This document shows positions 21,594-49,004 of a stretch of DNA of 64,000 bases, piece after piece. The notes beneath the pieces were generated by a model, which was given only the letters and a program-made list of their open reading frames with translations, was not told the origin of the DNA and searched no databases. Location of the stretch: NCBI RefSeq assembly GCF_024700885.2, contig NZ_CP117016.1, one strand, 5' to 3'. The translations under genes and the position numbers were made by a program. This DNA comes from Escherichia coli (GTDB lineage Bacteria; Pseudomonadota; Gammaproteobacteria; Enterobacterales; Enterobacteriaceae). Every line of letters starts with the position of its first letter. Within the stretch, counting starts at the first letter, position 1.

Positions 21594-21686
21594 TAGTTTA
21601 AGTTTCACCTGCACTGTAGACCGACGTGGATATGGTGTCGGTCTACGGTTTAAAAGATAACGATTACTGAAGGATGGACAGAACAC

Positions 21687-29139: not shown

Positions 29140-29457
29140 TTACAAATCGAAACTCATATTTAATAAAGGTGCATGTTGCTGTGCACCATAGACATCATTG
29201 TCACCTACATTCCCGGAGATAATATCTCGTGGCATGACGATTTTTACTGCGTTAGAAGGATCAAACCAGACAATACGATGAATAAAGTCAGGTTCAACAT
29301 GATATAAGCGCGCGATCAGTTCTGGGGTTAATTGCCCTGATGATTTAACTCGCTCATAGTTTTCTTTGGTTTTAAATAAAATATCTAAAACCAGTTCGTA
29401 AGGTCCGGCATTTTTCGAACGAATGACTTGCGCCAGTGAGACAATTGACTGTTTCAT
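29140..29457 (-). CDS. DUF4387-like small protein, 105 aa
   Basis: Small soluble ORF whose start overlaps the stop of the upstream DUF1446-like gene by 4 nt; family assignment from recollection of the DUF1446/DUF4387 pair. Confidence 0.6.
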   Translation of the reverse strand: MKQSIVSLAQVIRSKNAGPYELVLDILFKTKENYERVKSSGQLTPELIARLYHVEPDFIHRIVWFDPSNAVKIVMPRDIISGNVGDNDVYGAQQHAPLLNMSFDL

Positions 29458-30824
29458 GCCTGAACTCCTTCTGGCGTCACCTGTTCAATATGGAAATCAA
29501 AACGCAGAGCGTCGTTGGCTTCAATCAGGTGATATATGGAAAATTCGTATACCGGCCCGCCCTGAATATCAGAAGGGGAGAACGGGAATGCCAGGTTGCC
29601 TGCGGTAGCGATGCGGTTTTCATAGCCGTAGTGCAGCATAGTAGAGCGCACCAGCGAGCAAACGCTATTGGCAATATCCTGGGTCGGTGCAACTACATCA
29701 AGGACAATCCCCAGCTCATGCCCGGCAGTTTGCATCGGTTCATGGTCGCCCATCACCCCGTTTTTGCCGTACAGGTGGAAATTGATGCGAATGCTGTCAT
29801 CGTCGAGCGACAGGTTACGCGAAACGCTGGTTTTGACTTCATCGATGATTTTATCGATCCCGGCGATCATGATCGGGTCGCGCGTTCCGGCGATGGTCAG
29901 ACAGCGGAAGCCCACCCGTCGCGCACCTTCCAGTTTCAGGGCATACGGCGTTTCTTCATGCTTAGAACCGCTGACGTACACTTCGCCGTCATTGACCGCT
30001 TTAAATGTGCAGCCTTTCAGGTTCAACACGCCGCCAGGTCCTGGCAGGAAGTAGGGATCGGATTTCTCATACAGTGTGTGTGCAGCTGCTGACGTTTCGG
30101 TAAATTTACGCTTCGGATTAAATGTCTTCAGCGTAAAGCCGTTGTCATCAATGATGCCCATCGCACAGTCAGAGCCTGAGCCGGGCGTTGCGGCGATTGC
30201 CGCGCATTCAAGGATTTTCCCACAATGCAGCGCCAGACCTTCATCAAAGCCTTGCATGATCGGTAGCGCAGCAAAGCAGGCCGGGTCGTAAGCGCGCCCG
30301 CCCAGCACCACTTGCGCGCCTTCTTTCAGCGCCTGCTGGAAGGGTTCGATGCCCATTTGCGCGACGATATACGTACTTTCGTCAATCGCGTCGTGGGTTA
30401 ACGGCGGGACAAAATCCAGCGCCGTGATTTTGCCGTTATCCAGCGCCTGGTGGACGATGGCTTTGTCAACGTCTGCCGGGATCAGCGCCATCGAGAACGA
30501 GAGGTGCTCTTCCCGGGCAATCTCATGAATTATTTCTCGGCACCACTCCAGGTGTGGAGCGGCACCAGAACCGCCGGCCGTTCCGATCACCACCGGTATA
30601 TTATTTTGCACGCCTGCGGTGATCATATAGCGCAGATCGCGCTTGACCCCTGCGCGATCGGTAAACGGTTTGCCCGCCCCGAGGTAGTGGGGGCCAGGAT
30701 CGGAAGAGCCAGCATCAACGGCGATCAGATCGGGCGATTCTGCCATCGCTTTGCGGAAGCTCTCCTCCGGGAATCCATACCCGAGGATTGCCGTAGGCGA
30801 TAAGACTTTAAAAGAACGAGCCAT
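29454..30824 (-). CDS. AtuA-like (DUF1446) family protein, 456 aa
   Basis: About 450-aa soluble ORF resembling acyclic-terpene-utilisation AtuA-like proteins (my recollection); 3 nt downstream of the methylaspartase gene in the same operon. Confidence 0.6.
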   Translation of the reverse strand: MARSFKVLSPTAILGYGFPEESFRKAMAESPDLIAVDAGSSDPGPHYLGAGKPFTDRAGVKRDLRYMITAGVQNNIPVVIGTAGGSGAAPHLEWCREIIHEIAREEHLSFSMALIPADVDKAIVHQALDNGKITALDFVPPLTHDAIDESTYIVAQMGIEPFQQALKEGAQVVLGGRAYDPACFAALPIMQGFDEGLALHCGKILECAAIAATPGSGSDCAMGIIDDNGFTLKTFNPKRKFTETSAAAHTLYEKSDPYFLPGPGGVLNLKGCTFKAVNDGEVYVSGSKHEETPYALKLEGARRVGFRCLTIAGTRDPIMIAGIDKIIDEVKTSVSRNLSLDDDSIRINFHLYGKNGVMGDHEPMQTAGHELGIVLDVVAPTQDIANSVCSLVRSTMLHYGYENRIATAGNLAFPFSPSDIQGGPVYEFSIYHLIEANDALRFDFHIEQVTPEGVQA

Positions 30825-30827
30825 TTG

Positions 30828-32069
30828 TTAATCCTTAGCCTGCAACAGCGCGATAGTACGATTCATTTCGTTGAAGACGATATCGAGGCCTTCGTCAAAG
30901 CCCATCCCTGGCTTTACCAGCATACGCATAGGGCGAGCGGCAAGGGCGATGTGGACACAGGTGCGGGCACTGACATCAGTTTCATTGCAGGTGCCGCCCT
31001 GGTACGCTTCCATGCTGTGGCTATTGCAGTAAAGAACCGCATCGACGATGTTGTGAATACTGCCCAGATCCGGGGTTTTGATTTGCACCATGTGACAACT
31101 GGCGGCATCAGTAAAATCAACAATATCCTGGTAGGTGTTACACCATTCATCGGCCACAATTTTCACGCCGGAACCGAGGCGCGTCAGCTCTTTGGTAATC
31201 GCGGTCAGCAGGCGAATTTGATCGGGCTTGTTACCGGCATCGACCGGACCTTCAATGTAGAGCGGCAGGCCTTGCGCTTCTTTTTCCAGGCTGGCGATGT
31301 ATTGCGCACAGCGAAGCGGATCCATATCGAAGATCAGACCGATAGTGCCGTATACATCGATGTGCAGGGTAGGGTGGTAGCGTGCGCTGGTGCGCTTGCT
31401 CAGAATACGATCCGACAGCCAGCGGACATATTCGCGCAGTTTTTCACCTTTAAAGCCCAGTTTCTCTTCGACGTTATTAATCAGTGCATGGGGCAGCACG
31501 TCGATGCCCTTAAGGATCATCTTATCGACGGCGATATATCGATCGTCGCCGCTCTGACCAAATAATGGAATGGATTCCGCCACGCGTGGCAACTGCCATT
31601 CATCACAGACCACTTCAGTTTTCAGACGGCCGGTTGCCAGCGCGGTAGCATCAAGCAGCGCCTGTGATAATCCGTAGCGCACGGCGGTATGCAGCAAGTT
31701 GCCGTCAATACGCAATTTGTCGAAGAAACGGGCATTCGGCAGGAAAGCATCTACATCGCGGCCTACCAGTAATGGCTTGATATGGTCGTTGAGGAACGGA
31801 ATAAAGTGCTCTGCGAGGAACAGTGGATCGCGACCACCTGCCCCGGAATACTGTACGGCAGCACAGTCACCTACGGCGACCGCGCCGTTTTCCAGAATCA
31901 ACTGTACCGATACGCACTCCCCGGCCTGACGTACGGCGTTAAACCCCTGTGTTACTGGCTCCCCGGTATAAAAAAAGCCGTCGTGACCCGCTCCGTTTTT
32001 TATCGCCTGCTGGTCATCGAAATAGAATGAGGAGTAGCCAGCGGTGAACAGGGCCTGTTTTATTTTCAT
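30828..32069 (-). CDS. 3-methylaspartate ammonia-lyase (methylaspartase, enolase superfamily), 413 aa
   Basis: N-terminus MKIKQALFTAGYSSFYFDDQQAIKNGAGHDGFFYTGEPVT and length are typical of methylaspartase; start overlaps the glmE stop. Confidence 0.9.
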   Translation of the reverse strand: MKIKQALFTAGYSSFYFDDQQAIKNGAGHDGFFYTGEPVTQGFNAVRQAGECVSVQLILENGAVAVGDCAAVQYSGAGGRDPLFLAEHFIPFLNDHIKPLLVGRDVDAFLPNARFFDKLRIDGNLLHTAVRYGLSQALLDATALATGRLKTEVVCDEWQLPRVAESIPLFGQSGDDRYIAVDKMILKGIDVLPHALINNVEEKLGFKGEKLREYVRWLSDRILSKRTSARYHPTLHIDVYGTIGLIFDMDPLRCAQYIASLEKEAQGLPLYIEGPVDAGNKPDQIRLLTAITKELTRLGSGVKIVADEWCNTYQDIVDFTDAASCHMVQIKTPDLGSIHNIVDAVLYCNSHSMEAYQGGTCNETDVSARTCVHIALAARPMRMLVKPGMGFDEGLDIVFNEMNRTIALLQAKD

Positions 32070-33514
32070 TATGGTCTTCCTATTAATTTACTGTGGGATA
32101 CAGCATTGATGTCATCTACAACCATCTGGAATGTCGGTTGGCGTCCTTCAAAGCGTGCGCGTTCCGCAACGTAATCGTGGTGGAGGTCGAGAATATCTTT
32201 TGGCAATGGAACGGCTCCGGCTTCCAGTACGCGTATCGCGCCGGTGTTGTCACGGACCGGAAGAATTTTGCCCGCGTTGCAGGCGGCTGGCGCAAACGGC
32301 ACATCCAGTACGCCCGCTTCAAATGCCAGCACCGTACCGCGCGCAATATCACCATTACCCAGTTCGAACACTTTATTCAGTACCGCGCGAACCTCGCTCT
32401 TAATCAGTTCAATTTCCAGTTCAACCGCAGGGCAAGGCGGGAATTTCTGCTCGTTGACCATGTTGAGCATCTGGCGGGAGGCTTTCAGCCCCTGAATGTT
32501 GGCAGCGGCAGTCGGGATGCCCCAGGCTTCGTGCGGACTTTTGGTGATGACTTTGGTGGCACCAGACATCCCCGCGACGGCTGCACCCCAGGAGATAATG
32601 GCGAACGCTTTCGATTCGTCTTCCGGAAAGCCGCCCATCCACTGGTGAAACACGGTACTTAATTCATAGTCGGTATAGCCATAGCTCTGAAAGTATTCGT
32701 GTGCAAGTTCACGCAGAGACTGGATCGCCGCGACATCCTGCGTCAGGCTGCCGACCTGTCCATAACCAACGGTGATAGATTTCACACCCTGTTCCAGCGC
32801 CAGTAATCCTTCGATTATCGCGATAGAGTGCGAGATAAACGGCGGGATCAGCGTACCCGTTAGTGGGCCAAACGGTTCGCGGTTGATGCGGATCCCGTGT
32901 TCTTCATACATCCCCATTAAACGATCGCAGTACTGCCAGTCGCGGATCGATTTTTCCAGCGTTACGCGCTTGGCATACGGAATATTGTAGGAAATGCCGC
33001 CGCCTTCATAACTGGTAAAGCCGCTGGCCATCGAGATTTCAGCCAGCAGACGCGCATCTGGCGTGCCGTGGCGGATCTGTAGCGGTTTTTGCAAAGTTTC
33101 GGTGAGGCGACGGCAAGCTGCGACGCCGTGGTTAACTACCGGTAAACCGTTCAGTTTAGAGGTTCCGGCTTCGATGGATTTTTTAATCCCTACAGCCGCT
33201 TCTTCGTACCGATTCAGACGGGTATATGCATCGATGGTGCTCGGCAGCAGATCGCACTCTTCTTGTGGTGTTTTCAGTAGTTCGATGTGTTCGTCCATCA
33301 GCGCCACGCCTGCGCGCGGTTGGCTAAGAGTTTTACCTTCCTTGTCTGCTTTCAGCAGGGCAAGAGAGAAGCGTTTATGCTCAGGAATGGTTTGTTGGTA
33401 TTTAACGCCATCTTCAAAGTTTTCAACATCCTTGCCGGTTTCCCAGGTTTTCAGTACCTGTTGCCGCTCGGTCATGAATTCGTCATGGGTTAATTTCTTA
33501 TTTCGAAGTTCCAT
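32069..33514 (-). CDS. glmE: Glutamate mutase epsilon (catalytic, E) subunit, 481 aa
   Basis: Length and sequence consistent with methylaspartate mutase E chain; sits between glmL and the methylaspartase gene as in clostridial glmS-glmL-glmE clusters. Confidence 0.88.
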   Translation of the reverse strand: MELRNKKLTHDEFMTERQQVLKTWETGKDVENFEDGVKYQQTIPEHKRFSLALLKADKEGKTLSQPRAGVALMDEHIELLKTPQEECDLLPSTIDAYTRLNRYEEAAVGIKKSIEAGTSKLNGLPVVNHGVAACRRLTETLQKPLQIRHGTPDARLLAEISMASGFTSYEGGGISYNIPYAKRVTLEKSIRDWQYCDRLMGMYEEHGIRINREPFGPLTGTLIPPFISHSIAIIEGLLALEQGVKSITVGYGQVGSLTQDVAAIQSLRELAHEYFQSYGYTDYELSTVFHQWMGGFPEDESKAFAIISWGAAVAGMSGATKVITKSPHEAWGIPTAAANIQGLKASRQMLNMVNEQKFPPCPAVELEIELIKSEVRAVLNKVFELGNGDIARGTVLAFEAGVLDVPFAPAACNAGKILPVRDNTGAIRVLEAGAVPLPKDILDLHHDYVAERARFEGRQPTFQMVVDDINAVSHSKLIGRP

Positions 33515-33749
33515 TGATTGCAGCCTTAATTGTTATAGGGTTAAGCATTGAATACTGGTGCGCGCGGCGGCCAGTGGATCGACTCTGGCGACGTTTGCCA
33601 GCAGTGGTAATAGCCCCCGGGAATCGCGGTAATATTCAAATTCGGTCGGTAAGAGAATGCGTTTACCGTCGTCGTTTAACTCGCGGTATTTCAACCAGTG
33701 ATGCATATCGAACTGACTGGCACGCGAGAGCCATCCGCCGGAACCAACG

Positions 33750-33757
33750 ACTTTACG
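33750..33757. repeat. Target-site duplication (left copy) ACTTTACG
   Basis: 8-bp direct repeat immediately flanking the IS26 left inverted repeat. Confidence 0.85.
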
Positions 33758-34577
33758 GGCACTGTTGCAAATAGTCGGTGGTGATAAACTTATCATCCCC
33801 TTTTGCTGATGGAGCTGCACATGAACCCATTCAAAGGCCGGCATTTTCAGCGTGACATCATTCTGTGGGCCGTACGCTGGTACTGCAAATACGGCATCAG
33901 TTACCGTGAGCTGCAGGAGATGCTGGCTGAACGCGGAGTGAATGTCGATCACTCCACGATTTACCGCTGGGTTCAGCGTTATGCGCCTGAAATGGAAAAA
34001 CGGCTGCGCTGGTACTGGCGTAACCCTTCCGATCTTTGCCCGTGGCACATGGATGAAACCTACGTGAAGGTCAATGGCCGCTGGGCGTATCTGTACCGGG
34101 CCGTCGACAGCCGGGGCCGCACTGTCGATTTTTATCTCTCCTCCCGTCGTAACAGCAAAGCTGCATACCGGTTTCTGGGTAAAATCCTCAACAACGTGAA
34201 GAAGTGGCAGATCCCGCGATTCATCAACACGGATAAAGCGCCCGCCTATGGTCGCGCGCTTGCTCTGCTCAAACGCGAAGGCCGGTGCCCGTCTGACGTT
34301 GAACACCGACAGATTAAGTACCGGAACAACGTGATTGAATGCGATCATGGCAAACTGAAACGGATAATCGGCGCCACGCTGGGATTTAAATCCATGAAGA
34401 CGGCTTACGCCACCATCAAAGGTATTGAGGTGATGCGTGCACTACGCAAAGGCCAGGCCTCAGCATTTTATTATGGTGATCCCCTGGGCGAAATGCGCCT
34501 GGTAAGCAGAGTTTTTGAAATGTAAGGCCTTTGAATAAGACAAAAGGCTGCCTCATCGCTAACTTTGCAACAGTGCC
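33758..34577 (+). mobile_element. IS26 (IS6 family), complete 820-bp copy
   Basis: 14-bp terminal inverted repeats GGCACTGTTGCAAA (33758-33771) and TTTGCAACAGTGCC (34564-34577); internal transposase matches IS26 Tnp as I recall; flanked by 8-bp direct repeats. Confidence 0.93.
33821..34525 (+). CDS. tnpA: IS26 transposase Tnp26 (DDE), 234 aa
   Basis: MNPFKGRHFQRDIILWAVRWYCKYGISYRELQEMLAERGVNVDHSTIYRWVQRYAPEMEK is the canonical IS26 transposase N-terminus (from memory); start placed at the ATG 18 nt inside the ORF-track start. Confidence 0.93.
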   Translation: MNPFKGRHFQRDIILWAVRWYCKYGISYRELQEMLAERGVNVDHSTIYRWVQRYAPEMEKRLRWYWRNPSDLCPWHMDETYVKVNGRWAYLYRAVDSRGRTVDFYLSSRRNSKAAYRFLGKILNNVKKWQIPRFINTDKAPAYGRALALLKREGRCPSDVEHRQIKYRNNVIECDHGKLKRIIGATLGFKSMKTAYATIKGIEVMRALRKGQASAFYYGDPLGEMRLVSRVFEM

Positions 34578-34585
34578 ACTTTACG
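34578..34585. repeat. Target-site duplication (right copy) ACTTTACG
   Basis: 8-bp direct repeat immediately flanking the IS26 right inverted repeat. Confidence 0.85.
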
Positions 34586-35748
34586 CACGGTTGTCAGGTC
34601 ACGTCCCATCTGTAAATCGACATTGCCGACGCAGGTGCAGACCTCTTTTTTGGTGCCCGCATGTCTTTCGGTGGCATAACCCACACACAGTCCGGCCAGG
34701 ACGGTATCGAAATATTTTTCTTCTGCATTCGCGGGTAAGTAGTCGGGATGAGCGACTAGATGGCGGAGGTAATGATAAAAAGCGTCCAGCTGTGCGGGTT
34801 GCTGAGCAAAATTCACATTGACTAACTCTTTCGCACTTTCACCAACCACCATTGCCGAGACGCGCATTCCCAGATCGCCTTCCACCGTCCGTTTCACGAA
34901 GGGTTCCGGTACGCCGTGTAAAACGGTGTCGGGCGAGAGCGTGTTGGCACAGGCGGAATAGACATCGGTGGTTGCGCCACCCATGTCGATCAGCATGAAC
35001 TCTTTCCAGCTGTGATCGACGTTACTGATTGCCTTAACCAGTTCAAAGACCGTCCATGGTGTCGGCATTGGTTCTTCGCCTGTTTTATCAACAATGACAT
35101 CCAACCCTTTCCCTTTAACGATGCGTTTAAGGAATATGTCGCAGATAGCCTGGCGTGCAGCTAAAGGGTTCGGATGGTCAAGATCGGGCAGAACGTTGTC
35201 GACGATGGTCAGGTCTTTATGCCCGAGGATCTCCTGCACCTCGTCCTGAATATCCCGGTTTCCGGCATAAATAATGGCGCAGTCGAGTTTGGATTCTGCC
35301 AACACACGGGCGTTATTCAGTCCGTAGCTTTCTTCTCCGCCATCGGTGCCGCCGGTGAACAAGAGAATATCGGGCTGCGTTTCTTCCAGTGCCTGGATAT
35401 CACGGCGGTTCAGCTTGTAGGCGTAATATTGCGCAATTTTAGCACCCGCAGAGTGAGCGGTTACTTTCGCGGTTTCCAGGGTGATAGAAGGCACCAATCC
35501 CATTGCGGCAACCGCCAGCCCACCTTTGGCAGAGGAGGAATACTTCAATGCAACCTCACCACTGTTTAACAGGGGGAGGGCATTATCTACGTTTAACACC
35601 TGGTCCAGGCTGGAGAAAAACCCCTTCGCCAGATGATGGGTGGTGGTTGGGGTCAGAACGTGGTTAACCAACGTTAACGCGTCCCCCTCCCGGGTGAAGA
35701 GGGCTGCTTTGGTCCACGTCGAACCAATATCGACAGAGACGATTTGCA

Positions 35749-36198
35749 TCAGATTGCCTCTTCAAGAATGCGAGTATCAACGTCATGACGTTGGTTGATA
35801 TCGTGGGCCATCAGCTGACAAACATCTTCTAAGTCATGACTTGGGGAAAAGACGCGATCAAATCCCATCTCTTTGAACTTGGTTTCCACGTCAGCGAAGT
35901 CATGTTTTCCGACCACCAGGTTACCGCCCACATAGAGCAGGATGTTACCCAGCCCACGCTCGATGCAGCGTTCGCGCATGCCCAGACAATCGATATCGCC
36001 ATGCCCATAGATAGAGGAGACGACAATCGCGTCAGCACCAGTTTCAATGGCAGCATCAATATATTCGTCCTGGCTGACCATTACGCCCAGATTAATAACT
36101 CTGAAGTCATGGTTGCTAAAAACGCGGTCCAGAACTTTATTGCCTACTGCATGGCAGTCCGCGCCAATAACGCCAATCACAAGTGTTGCTTTCTTCAT
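35749..36198 (-). CDS. glmS: Glutamate mutase sigma (B12-binding, S) subunit, about 149 aa
   Basis: [24 protein letters not shown] contains the DxHxxG cobalamin-binding signature; start at ATG 36198 preceded by AGGA; stop overlaps the glmL start (ATGA). Confidence 0.88.
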
Positions 36199-36745
36199 GG
36201 GTAATCCTTTGTAAGACAGAGAGTAAAATAAGTTACACACGTCGTATTTATGGCCGCTCATAACGGCACAGGTTTAATATCACAGGAGTGTCTTTATCTG
36301 ACCGTAATGTTGCAATTGATCTATTTTCAAAATGTCTTTCGGGAAATGATTGTTTAAAGTGTGTTTTCAAATTCTCATTTTAATTCAGTGTGTTATGTCA
36401 ACTAATGTCATGAATGTTAAATTTTTAAAATTAACTTGATTTGATGTATTGAGATAATTGTGATCAACTTCTAATTTGCATTTTTGTGACGTGGCTTTAG
36501 CCATGAGTAAATACATTTCATAAAAGTTAAGTCGAATTTCACTGCAATTCATCTCTGCTTAATGTAAAAATAATGTTGAAAATAACAAATAATTAATGAT
36601 TCATGCGAATTATGACCTTTGTTAGCTCTTTTGATTTTTCGTAAAAAAGAAAAGTACATGAAGGTGCTACCAGTACGAGTAACGTTAATCAAAAGTTTTA
36701 TTACGTCTGGCAATAACGCAGGCCATTTTTCGCGACAGGAGGGAT

Positions 36746-37168
36746 TTAATCAGTATAATCCTCATACAATAGGTCAGGATTTACTGAACCGTTAACGGGG
36801 ATTTGGTGTTGAAATTTAGAAATGGCGGAGTCAATTAATGAAGACAATATCGGAAAAATGACAGTGTCAGAATTAATTTCAATTAATCCTTCTCGTTGTT
36901 GACCAAAAAAGATATTTATCTTGATTTCATTTGTACTACGGCAATCAATATGCAGTAATTTTTGATCGCTGAGATTTTCTGTTTCATAAATGTTTTTGGC
37001 GATAGTCGGATGTATTGATGCCAGACATCTGCTCAGATAAGCCAGATCCTTTAGGGAACACCCCGCTGAGTAGAGGATGTCAGAGAATTTTTGTGTGTCA
37101 ACTGTTGTCTCTGAAGCGTATGTTGCATTGACAGGAAGGGTGTTGAAAGAGATTTGAGATGGGATCAT
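36746..37168 (-). CDS. Hypothetical protein, 140 aa, no recognisable family
   Basis: ORF in a markedly AT-rich block; co-directional with and 80 bp downstream of the 314-aa orphan ORF; coding status unverified. Confidence 0.45.
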   Translation of the reverse strand: MIPSQISFNTLPVNATYASETTVDTQKFSDILYSAGCSLKDLAYLSRCLASIHPTIAKNIYETENLSDQKLLHIDCRSTNEIKINIFFGQQREGLIEINSDTVIFPILSSLIDSAISKFQHQIPVNGSVNPDLLYEDYTD

Positions 37169-37248: not shown

Positions 37249-38193
37249 TTAAAGTATTTGATTGGCATCGGTTAACTGATCAATAACCAGTGCCAGATTG
37301 GTAAACATTTTGAAAAAGCGATACTGGCTCGGAATATCTCTTTCAAAGACGAAACATTCAATGTCATTGTTTGAAAAATAAAGGACTAGTGTTGCTGATT
37401 CGTCAGGAAAAATATGGAAATATATCTGGTTACCAGAAGGAGGATAGTCCAGATGAAGGGTATCTTTGCCCGTCACATACCTGTTGTGGTCGTGGATGCT
37501 GCGCTCACACTTCATCAGAGGTGTCATGATACTCATGTATTCATCTGATGTTAATATATTAAAATCACCATCCATTTTAAAGAAACGATAAAGTAACAGT
37601 ACATCCTCTTGCGTAACCGGTTCGTTTGTTTTTAGAGGGAAATAAGTGGGAACCAGAAGATGAGGTTCTAATCTATTTTGTTGAGCGCTATAACTAAATT
37701 TGAACATAAATTCCGGATCGCTCATTAATTGAGCGACATAATTATGCCTGGCTTCAAAAATTTTAACTTTTATCAGGTTAAATAAGTCTGTTTCGTTATC
37801 CTGTATTAAAAGACATTGGCCATAGCAGCCAGGCTTTTTTTCATTATAAGCAGAAACGGTTATTCTGTCAGGAGTGTCAACGTTATATCCAAAAGCCAGA
37901 TAGTGACCTTCCTCATCGAGATTTGTTTCCAGGTTATTTAAATTCATCACATGAAGTGTTTGCAATGCTGATTCAATGAGCTGTTGACTCTCTGAGGTAA
38001 ATGTTTCGCGCTGCGTTGTATAAAGTGTATCGATTCCAACGACTATCCGATGTGGGTCAAGGATGGCGGCAATCATCTTTATTACCTGCACAGTCATGGG
38101 TGATGTCATTGATTCTTTATCTGTTTTTAGAGGATCATTAGATGGCCAACCTGAGAAGCGATTGACAGCAGAACTGATATTATCAGGACTCAT
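37249..38193 (-). CDS. Hypothetical protein, 314 aa, no recognisable family
   Basis: Longest ORF in an AT-rich region with no competing frame; no signal peptide or transmembrane segment evident; no motif I can assign. Confidence 0.55.
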   Translation of the reverse strand: MSPDNISSAVNRFSGWPSNDPLKTDKESMTSPMTVQVIKMIAAILDPHRIVVGIDTLYTTQRETFTSESQQLIESALQTLHVMNLNNLETNLDEEGHYLAFGYNVDTPDRITVSAYNEKKPGCYGQCLLIQDNETDLFNLIKVKIFEARHNYVAQLMSDPEFMFKFSYSAQQNRLEPHLLVPTYFPLKTNEPVTQEDVLLLYRFFKMDGDFNILTSDEYMSIMTPLMKCERSIHDHNRYVTGKDTLHLDYPPSGNQIYFHIFPDESATLVLYFSNNDIECFVFERDIPSQYRFFKMFTNLALVIDQLTDANQIL

Positions 38194-47930: not shown

Positions 47931-48094
47931 TGCATAACACACGACCAGAAGTCGCATTATTTCTGGTCGTGTCGTGCGAATCATAAGCAGTTGAGTGATC
48001 TACATCGAAATTTTTGTTGCGCTCAAGTCTGAAATCAGTAATATATGCCGCCGTTGCCACGGGATATCAAACAAACCGAAAGCAACGAAAAAGT

Positions 48095-48170
48095 GGGTCG
48101 TTAGCTCAGTTGGTAGAGCAGTTGACTTTTAATCAATTGGTCGCAGGTTCGAATCCTGCACGACCCACCA
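48095..48170 (+). tRNA. lysT: tRNA-Lys (anticodon UUU)
   Basis: 76-nt GGGTCGTTAGCTCAGTTGGTAGAGCAGTTGACTTTTAATCAATTGGTCGCAGGTTCGAATCCTGCACGACCCACCA; anticodon loop CTTTTAA; encoded CCA. Confidence 0.97.
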
Positions 48171-48198
48171 ATCGCTAAGGTGGACGCGGTAGTAAAAC

Positions 48199-48270
48199 GT
48201 GAAGGATAACGTTGCGTCAGCAACGGCCCGAAGGGCGAGACGAAGTCGAGTCATCCTGCACGACCCACCA
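48199..48270 (+). repeat. Spacer repeat ending in a duplicated tRNA-Lys 3' end (copy 1)
   Basis: GTGAAGGATAACGTTGCGTCAGCAACGGCCCG...TCATCCTGCACGACCCACCA recurs at 48694-48763; the last 20 nt equal the tRNA-Lys acceptor/T-arm end. Confidence 0.8.
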
Positions 48271-48305
48271 CTAACCTAGTTAGTTGTAGTATCCAGCGTA
48301 GTATC

Positions 48306-48381
48306 GGGTGATTAGCTCAGCTGGGAGAGCACCTCCCTTACAAGGAGGGGGTCGGCGGTTCGATCCCGTCATCACCCACCA
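48306..48381 (+). tRNA. valT: tRNA-Val (anticodon UAC)
   Basis: 76-nt GGGTGATTAGCTCAGCTGGGAGAGCACCTCCCTTACAAGGAGGGGGTCGGCGGTTCGATCCCGTCATCACCCACCA; anticodon loop CTTACAA. Confidence 0.97.
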
Positions 48382-48383
48382 CC

Positions 48384-48459
48384 GGGTCGTTAGCTCAGTT
48401 GGTAGAGCAGTTGACTTTTAATCAATTGGTCGCAGGTTCGAATCCTGCACGACCCACCA
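48384..48459 (+). tRNA. lysW: tRNA-Lys (anticodon UUU)
   Basis: Identical 76-nt tRNA-Lys sequence. Confidence 0.97.
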
Positions 48460-48510
48460 CTAATTACGGTGGGTTCGGTGGAAGTAGTTTGTAGTATCCA
48501 GCGCAGTATC

Positions 48511-48586
48511 GGGTGATTAGCTCAGCTGGGAGAGCACCTCCCTTACAAGGAGGGGGTCGGCGGTTCGATCCCGTCATCACCCACCA
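48511..48586 (+). tRNA. valZ: tRNA-Val (anticodon UAC)
   Basis: Identical 76-nt tRNA-Val sequence. Confidence 0.97.
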
Positions 48587-48589
48587 CTC

Positions 48590-48665
48590 GGGTCGTTAGC
48601 TCAGTTGGTAGAGCAGTTGACTTTTAATCAATTGGTCGCAGGTTCGAATCCTGCACGACCCACCA
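48590..48665 (+). tRNA. lysY: tRNA-Lys (anticodon UUU)
   Basis: Identical 76-nt tRNA-Lys sequence. Confidence 0.97.
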
Positions 48666-48693
48666 ATTTTAACATCAAACTCAGATGTTAAGC

Positions 48694-48763
48694 GTGAAGG
48701 ATAACGTTGCGTCAGCAACGGCCCGTAGGGCGAGCGAAGCGAGTCATCCTGCACGACCCACCA
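48694..48763 (+). repeat. Spacer repeat ending in a duplicated tRNA-Lys 3' end (copy 2)
   Basis: Near-identical to 48199-48270. Confidence 0.8.
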
Positions 48764-48811
48764 ATTTTAAAGATTGGTTCCGAGTAGAAATCTTTCAGGT
48801 AACACCCGTAT

Positions 48812-48887
48812 GGGTCGTTAGCTCAGTTGGTAGAGCAGTTGACTTTTAATCAATTGGTCGCAGGTTCGAATCCTGCACGACCCACCA
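48812..48887 (+). tRNA. lysZ: tRNA-Lys (anticodon UUU)
   Basis: Identical 76-nt tRNA-Lys sequence. Confidence 0.97.
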
Positions 48888-48920
48888 TCCTGAATGATTA
48901 AAGCAGCATAATCCCGCAAG

Positions 48921-48996
48921 GGGTCGTTAGCTCAGTTGGTAGAGCAGTTGACTTTTAATCAATTGGTCGCAGGTTCGAATCCTGCACGACCCACCA
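48921..48996 (+). tRNA. lysQ: tRNA-Lys (anticodon UUU)
   Basis: Identical 76-nt tRNA-Lys sequence, followed by a terminator. Confidence 0.97.
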
Positions 48997-49004
48997 ATGT
49001 AAAA

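Follow-up and report, generated by a model that had tools for sequence, protein, structure and literature searches.

Why is glmL, which lies between glmS and glmE on the same strand, split by an insertion sequence in this Escherichia coli, and what has the interruption done to the pathway encoded by the operon? We analysed a stretch of 64,000 nucleotides (hereafter, the window) and compared it with strains 1190 and MLI114, in which glmL is likewise annotated between the two mutase genes. An earlier note, made from the letters alone, had described a simple IS26 insertion with a target duplication. The best overall explanation, which we hold with high confidence, is a recent and private insertion of a canonical IS26 in glmL, by way of cointegrate formation and resolution, with predicted loss of GlmL function and probable polarity on the genes that follow. 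The features on which this explanation rests are listed in Table 1.

Table 1. Features of the insertion and of the interrupted operon, with their positions in the 64-kb window.
Feature	Position	Strand	Evidence
AtuA-family (DUF1446) gene, downstream of mal	29454..30824	-	PF07287; annotation of 1190 and MLI114
mal, methylaspartate ammonia-lyase, downstream, in a tightly packed string	30828..32069	-	TIGR01502, 543.7 bits
glmE, methylaspartate mutase subunit E, P83 allele	32069..33514	-	TIGR01503, 860.9 bits
Orphan glmL 3' fragment, codons 392-462 and stop	33533..33748	-	100% identical to the intact allele
Target-site duplication, left copy, 8 bp, ACTTTACG	33750..33757	.	Single copy at empty sites
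IS26, complete, 820 bp	33758..34577	+	100% identity to annotated IS26 copies
tnp26, 234-aa DDE transposase	33821..34525	+	NF033587, IS6 family
Target-site duplication, right copy, 8 bp, ACTTTACG	34578..34585	.	Sequence
Truncated glmL, 391 native codons, 5 IS-encoded codons (ALLQS) and a TAG inside IRR, 396 aa	34559..35749	-	ORF and profile
glmS, methylaspartate (glutamate) mutase subunit S, intact, upstream of the insertion	35749..36198	-	NF002612, 251.9 bits; annotated in 1190

The inserted element is IS26 itself and shows no difference from known copies. Over its 820 bp it matches annotated IS26 copies in at least 5,000 plasmids with 100% identity, and the same 820-bp sequence is found in 3,384 of the 5,426 complete E. 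coli genomes (62%). Its ends, IRL (GGCACTGTTGCAAA, positions 33758-33771) and IRR (TTTGCAACAGTGCC, positions 34564-34577), are perfect 14-bp inverted repeats, since all 14 bases of IRL equal those of the reverse complement of IRR (14/14). The product of tnp26 scores 275.6 bits against the NCBIfam model of IS6 family transposases (NF033587, cutoff 125). The catalytic residues D78, D138 and E173 were all found (they become D82, D142 and E177 if one counts from the upstream in-frame ATG at 33809), and residue 184 is G, the standard allele. The complete element with inverted repeats and an intact transposase, as first described, was thus reproduced in its coordinates, its repeats and its ORF. The operon is on the minus strand, and tnp26 is antiparallel to it. 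In the whole window, IS26 ends occur only as this one IRL and this one IRR.

The same octamer stands on both sides of the element. An 8-bp match at fixed positions would arise by chance with a probability of 1.5e-5, a figure that is irrelevant here because the occupied site could be compared with its empty form. Strains 1190 and MLI114 (from human stool, Mali) have the empty site with a single ACTTTACG, which bears out the direct repeat of the earlier note. Alignment of the window to strain 1190 yields two blocks free of gaps (1-33757 and 34578-64000), whose overlap in the reference is exactly 8 bp; window and strain are collinear, with 6 SNPs in 63 kb, apart from 828 inserted bases. The comparison with MLI114 shows 1 SNP in 41.7 kb. 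This sole difference is in the sucB-sucC intergenic region, at position 21633, which is T in the window and G in both MLI114 and strain 1190. The IS26 and one target octamer, 828 bp in total, are the sole structural difference in the 64 kb.

These comparisons bear on how the element came to be there. An array of IS26 pseudo-compound transposons or translocatable units was considered and rejected, as there are one IRL and one IRR in 64 kb and no extra DNA relative to 1190 and MLI114. More generally, one IS26 with 828 bp as the sole difference and no other IS26 end excludes, at the 64-kb scale, a composite transposon, an inversion or deletion junction and an intramolecular transposition. The latter process does exist and yields deletions or inversions, according to the part of PMC7986276 that deals with it, and one could propose that our copy arose by intramolecular replicative transposition of another chromosomal copy, or that it marks a recombination or rearrangement junction. 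Yet such events part the halves of the target duplication or delete a flank. Here, the same 8 bp are found on both sides of one copy, both flanks are gap-free and collinear with two relatives over 42-63 kb, and the window holds no second IS26 end, which makes this origin extremely improbable. We give as little credence to an assembly artefact, i.e. to the misplacement of a repeat-resolved IS26 copy. IS26 is multi-copy in most carriers (a median of 6 places per carrier genome) and such repeats are hard for short-read assembly, but misplacement would not give a precise 8-bp local duplication, exact IS termini and a difference of exactly 828 bp from the empty site.

The earlier note had argued for a single transposition event as opposed to a composite transposon or a recombination junction. 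The second half of this claim stands, because collinearity excludes both structures. The word 'single' is too simple, since a cointegrate and its resolution are needed. IS6/IS26 elements form cointegrates that contain two copies of both the IS and the 8-bp target (PMC7986276, section 20; PMC4196232). A lone IS with new direct repeats is obtained, in the cases treated in that section and in PMC4196232, only after resolution of the cointegrate, which is recA-dependent in those studied. As IS26 moves by cointegrates, a lone copy with a duplication implies a copy-in cointegrate that was later resolved. In the sequence of events that we propose, Tnp26 would first have joined the chromosome to an IS26-bearing plasmid or translocatable unit in a copy-in (replicative) cointegrate, with the IS26 and the 8-bp target doubled. 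Recombination between the directly repeated IS26 copies would then have ejected the donor, leaving one IS26 with its duplication.

The nature of the donor leaves room for a variant of this scheme. The lone IS26 could be the remnant of an IS26-bounded pseudo-compound transposon or translocatable unit, carrying for example a resistance gene, from which the passenger and one IS were lost. The loss of the central segment and of one IS26 leaves a lone IS26 with the original 8-bp repeats, as indicated in section 21 of PMC7986276 and in the plasmid table of PMC4196232. The variant is in fact a sub-case of the best explanation, with a translocatable unit as donor instead of a plasmid. However, the locus bears no trace of passenger DNA, and the outcome would be the same as that of the resolution of a plasmid cointegrate. 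We regard such a remnant as possible, if rather doubtful.

The element lies between codons 391 and 392 of glmL. In-silico removal of the 828 bp gives a continuous ORF of 462 aa. The intact gene of strain 1190 has 1,389 bp and encodes a protein of this length (WP_001167709.1), and MLI114 encodes the same protein. We scored the products against the models of the GlmL/MutL family (methylaspartate mutase accessory protein; NF040745, TIGR01319, PF13941), for which the curated equivalog cutoff is 475 bits. The restored ORF reaches 510.7 bits and matches positions 2-457 of the 459 in the profile, while the present 396-aa product is under the cutoff, with 458 bits over positions 2-390 of 459. The orphan 3' fragment has 121.9 bits over positions 384-456. 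These 121.9 bits over 73 profile positions indicate that the family conserves the C-terminus that was lost here. From this we infer that the loss of 71 conserved C-terminal residues inactivates GlmL. The proposal that excision rejoins the gene in frame is therefore borne out by an ORF that passes the GlmL cutoff, and re-translation agrees with the product that had been predicted, i.e. 391 native residues followed by ALLQS and 71 codons cut off. The restored protein had also been likened to clostridial GlmL/MutL. Its length of 462 aa is right, but the proper comparator is E. coli's own glmL (WP_001167709.1). We suggest that glmL be annotated in this strain as a pseudogene interrupted by IS26.

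One further ORF overlaps the interruption. It spans 33533-34348 on the minus strand (271 aa), starts at an ATG within IS26, runs antisense to tnp26 and continues in frame into the glmL 3' fragment. We do not regard it as a gene, since it lacks an upstream Shine-Dalgarno sequence and is an open frame of purely mechanical origin; it is probably unexpressed.

Some points speak against a firm prediction of the functional loss. Glutamate mutase activity can be reconstituted with GlmS and GlmE alone. A structure search found no solved structure of any GlmL relative, and the solved complexes that it found for the mutase bear the names glutamate mutase or epsilon subunit only. The description of GlmL as a reactivating chaperone is an analogy to diol dehydratase reactivase, made in PMC4682846 through its reference 46.

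The operon itself is an already described accessory cluster on the E. coli chromosome. Many E. coli chromosomes match the flank at 34578-36300 with 100% identity, and their annotation names glmL and glmS there. The longest glmS ORF (35749-36261, minus strand) has 170 aa, and the start annotated in the relatives gives 149 aa (35749-36198) with a full match to the GlmS profile. The glmS stop overlaps the start of glmL (ATG at 35749). On the other side, glmE is the nearest gene downstream of the insertion, its start being 18 nt past the glmL stop. Beyond the AtuA-family gene, the annotations of 1190 and MLI114 give DUF4387, a dicarboxylate/amino acid symporter, a class I fumarase (fumD) and cobO. 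In strain 1190, sucABCD and a gene for a LysR-type regulator flank one end of the cluster, and cydAB-tolQRA the other. We found the cluster in 1,135 of the 5,426 complete E. coli genomes (21%), and in 1,130 of these 1,135 carriers at least 80% of the glmL 5' part and glmS is covered. It is the cluster for the conversion of glutamate to mesaconate and citramalate that has been reported in E. coli O157:H7 and in 26.5% of E. coli strains (Kronen & Berg 2015, PMC4682846).

Two other parts of the window deserve a brief description. Between glmS and cydA there are two AT-rich hypothetical genes on the minus strand (36746-37168 and 37249-38193) encoding 140 and 314 aa. Their region has 36% GC against 51% in the window; neither protein has a recorded Pfam hit or a match in NCBIfam or PADLOC, and the 314-aa protein differs from that of strain 1190 by N133D. 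The pair has the appearance of a small islet, acquired horizontally and joined to the glm cluster. Seven tRNA genes (Lys, Val) at about 48090-49000 give rise to internal BLAST repeat matches; they have the same annotation in 1190 and MLI114 and are ordinary.

The insertion may affect more than glmL. From the premature stop to the glmE start codon the untranslated RNA would be 1,045 nt long, of which about 800 nt are antisense to IS26. The inverted repeat carries an outward -35 hexamer, TTGCAA, for which the best -10 match at a spacing of 16-18 nt is 2/6 in either flank, and a consensus scan found no promoter directed from IS26 toward glmE. We thus rejected a hybrid outward promoter that would rescue glmE, as there is no usable -10 in either flank and none in the consensus scan. 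The same scan found no terminator-like site on the operon strand inside IS26. The composition of the untranslated stretch, used as a proxy for Rho loading, is unremarkable (C/G of about 1.0-1.3). In E. coli, about 1 kb of untranslated RNA upstream of a gene usually causes polarity. With some 1 kb of untranslated RNA, largely antisense to the IS, ahead of glmE and no outward promoter in the IS, the expression of glmE, mal and the following genes is probably reduced by polarity, on these general grounds. Together, the loss of GlmL and the probable polarity imply that the B12-dependent glutamate mutase pathway is probably impaired in this strain.

One may ask if the insertion could instead be silent for the pathway, with GlmL dispensable and read-through of IS26 keeping glmE and mal expressed. 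This is compatible with the lack of a terminator-like site on the operon strand within IS26, with the weak Rho-loading proxy, and with a role of GlmL that is known by analogy only. Against it, glmL is intact in essentially all carriers (judged by the coverage of at least 80% of its 5' part and glmS in 1,130/1,135), the lost C-terminus is conserved, and it is general knowledge that 1 kb or so of untranslated RNA is usually polar in E. coli. We therefore consider a silent insertion unlikely. Under the preferred reading, i.e. loss of GlmL with probable polarity, the strain is predicted to be impaired in the conversion of glutamate to mesaconate and citramalate, which has little import beyond strain-level annotation.

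The gene next to the insertion also carries an unusual allele. One of the 6 SNPs relative to strain 1190, at position 33267 (glmE codon 83), is non-synonymous and changes L83 to P. Of 761 matching records (760 genomes), all except one have L at residue 83 of GlmE, and so does the Clostridium cochlearium enzyme at the position that aligns with it. We considered if this change could be decay that followed the insertion and rejected the idea, because MLI114 and an ENA metagenome scaffold combine GlmE P83 with an uninterrupted glmL. Its presence beside an intact glmL elsewhere indicates a lineage polymorphism older than the IS26 insertion. The exact P83 GlmE protein is found in 129 blocks of a large gene-position index.

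How recent, and how widespread, is the insertion? A 400-bp junction is covered by none of the 5,426 complete E. coli genomes. The exact 396-aa product has no record in an index of 153 billion gene positions, a weak negative, given that contigs assembled from short reads end at IS26 copies. Neither 1190 nor MLI114 differs from the window in the sequence of the orphan glmL 3' fragment. The insertion is very recent and, as far as public data show, strain-private, because only 1 SNP in 41.7 kb separates the window from MLI114 and no junction is shared. The earlier note had suggested a recent event from the undecayed state of the 3' fragment; this fragment is indeed 100% identical to the intact allele, and near-identical relatives have the empty site.

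The note had also taken the chromosomal IS26 as a hint of past contact with an IS26-bearing replicon. This is true but nearly trivial, because IS26 is present in 3,384 of the 5,426 complete genomes and 15% of its copies are chromosomal (3,537 chromosomal places versus 20,105 on plasmids in complete E. coli genomes). A literature search for IS26 together with glmL or glutamate mutase found nothing. The finding is thus correct but ordinary: the element, the operon and the disruption of genes by IS are all known, and only the site is new.

Could the insertion have a wider meaning? A resident IS26 raises the frequency of cointegrates 60-fold in the experiments described in PMC4196232. By extension, the lone copy would be a preferred chromosomal target for the later integration of resistance units by the targeted conservative activity of Tnp26. 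It is tempting to go further and see in the insertion a selected loss of the B12-dependent glutamate mutase pathway, or the first step of the capture of resistance genes by the chromosome. We think that either is highly improbable. There are no resistance genes and no second IS26 within the window, and no recurrent disruption of the glmL locus was found in other genomes. The practical uses are more modest. The exact junction marks the clone and could serve in typing, and, should the isolate be multidrug-resistant, the potential docking site for IS26-borne resistance units deserves attention. With MLI114, the source strain makes up a natural near-isogenic pair in which the contributions of GlmL and of a poorly understood enterobacterial pathway could be studied.

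It is useful to place this locus among the systems that it resembles. The lone IS26 copy with an 8-bp duplication described for R388::IS26 in PMC4196232 is like the copy in the window, with 820 bp, GGCACTGTTGCAAA inverted repeats and a 234-aa DDE transposase. With respect to known IS26 copies, only the insertion site differs, i.e. the chromosomal glmL with ACTTTACG as target, and none of the 5,426 complete genomes has an insertion there. In the cases of activation by hybrid promoters listed in section 9 of PMC7986276 (aphA7, blaSHV-2a, blaKPC), the outward -35 is the TTGCAA also present in the inverted repeat of the window. In contrast to those cases, the insertion in glmL lacks a usable -10 and is disruptive, not activating. 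Finally, the cluster of O157:H7 and other enterobacteria (glmS-mutL/glmL-glmE-mal-DUF1446-...-gltP-fumD-cobA; PMC4682846) and that of the window have the same genes in the same order, between sucABCD and cydAB and with a LysR-type regulator adjoining. The two differ in that the glmL of the window is split by IS26 and its glmE has the minority allele P83.
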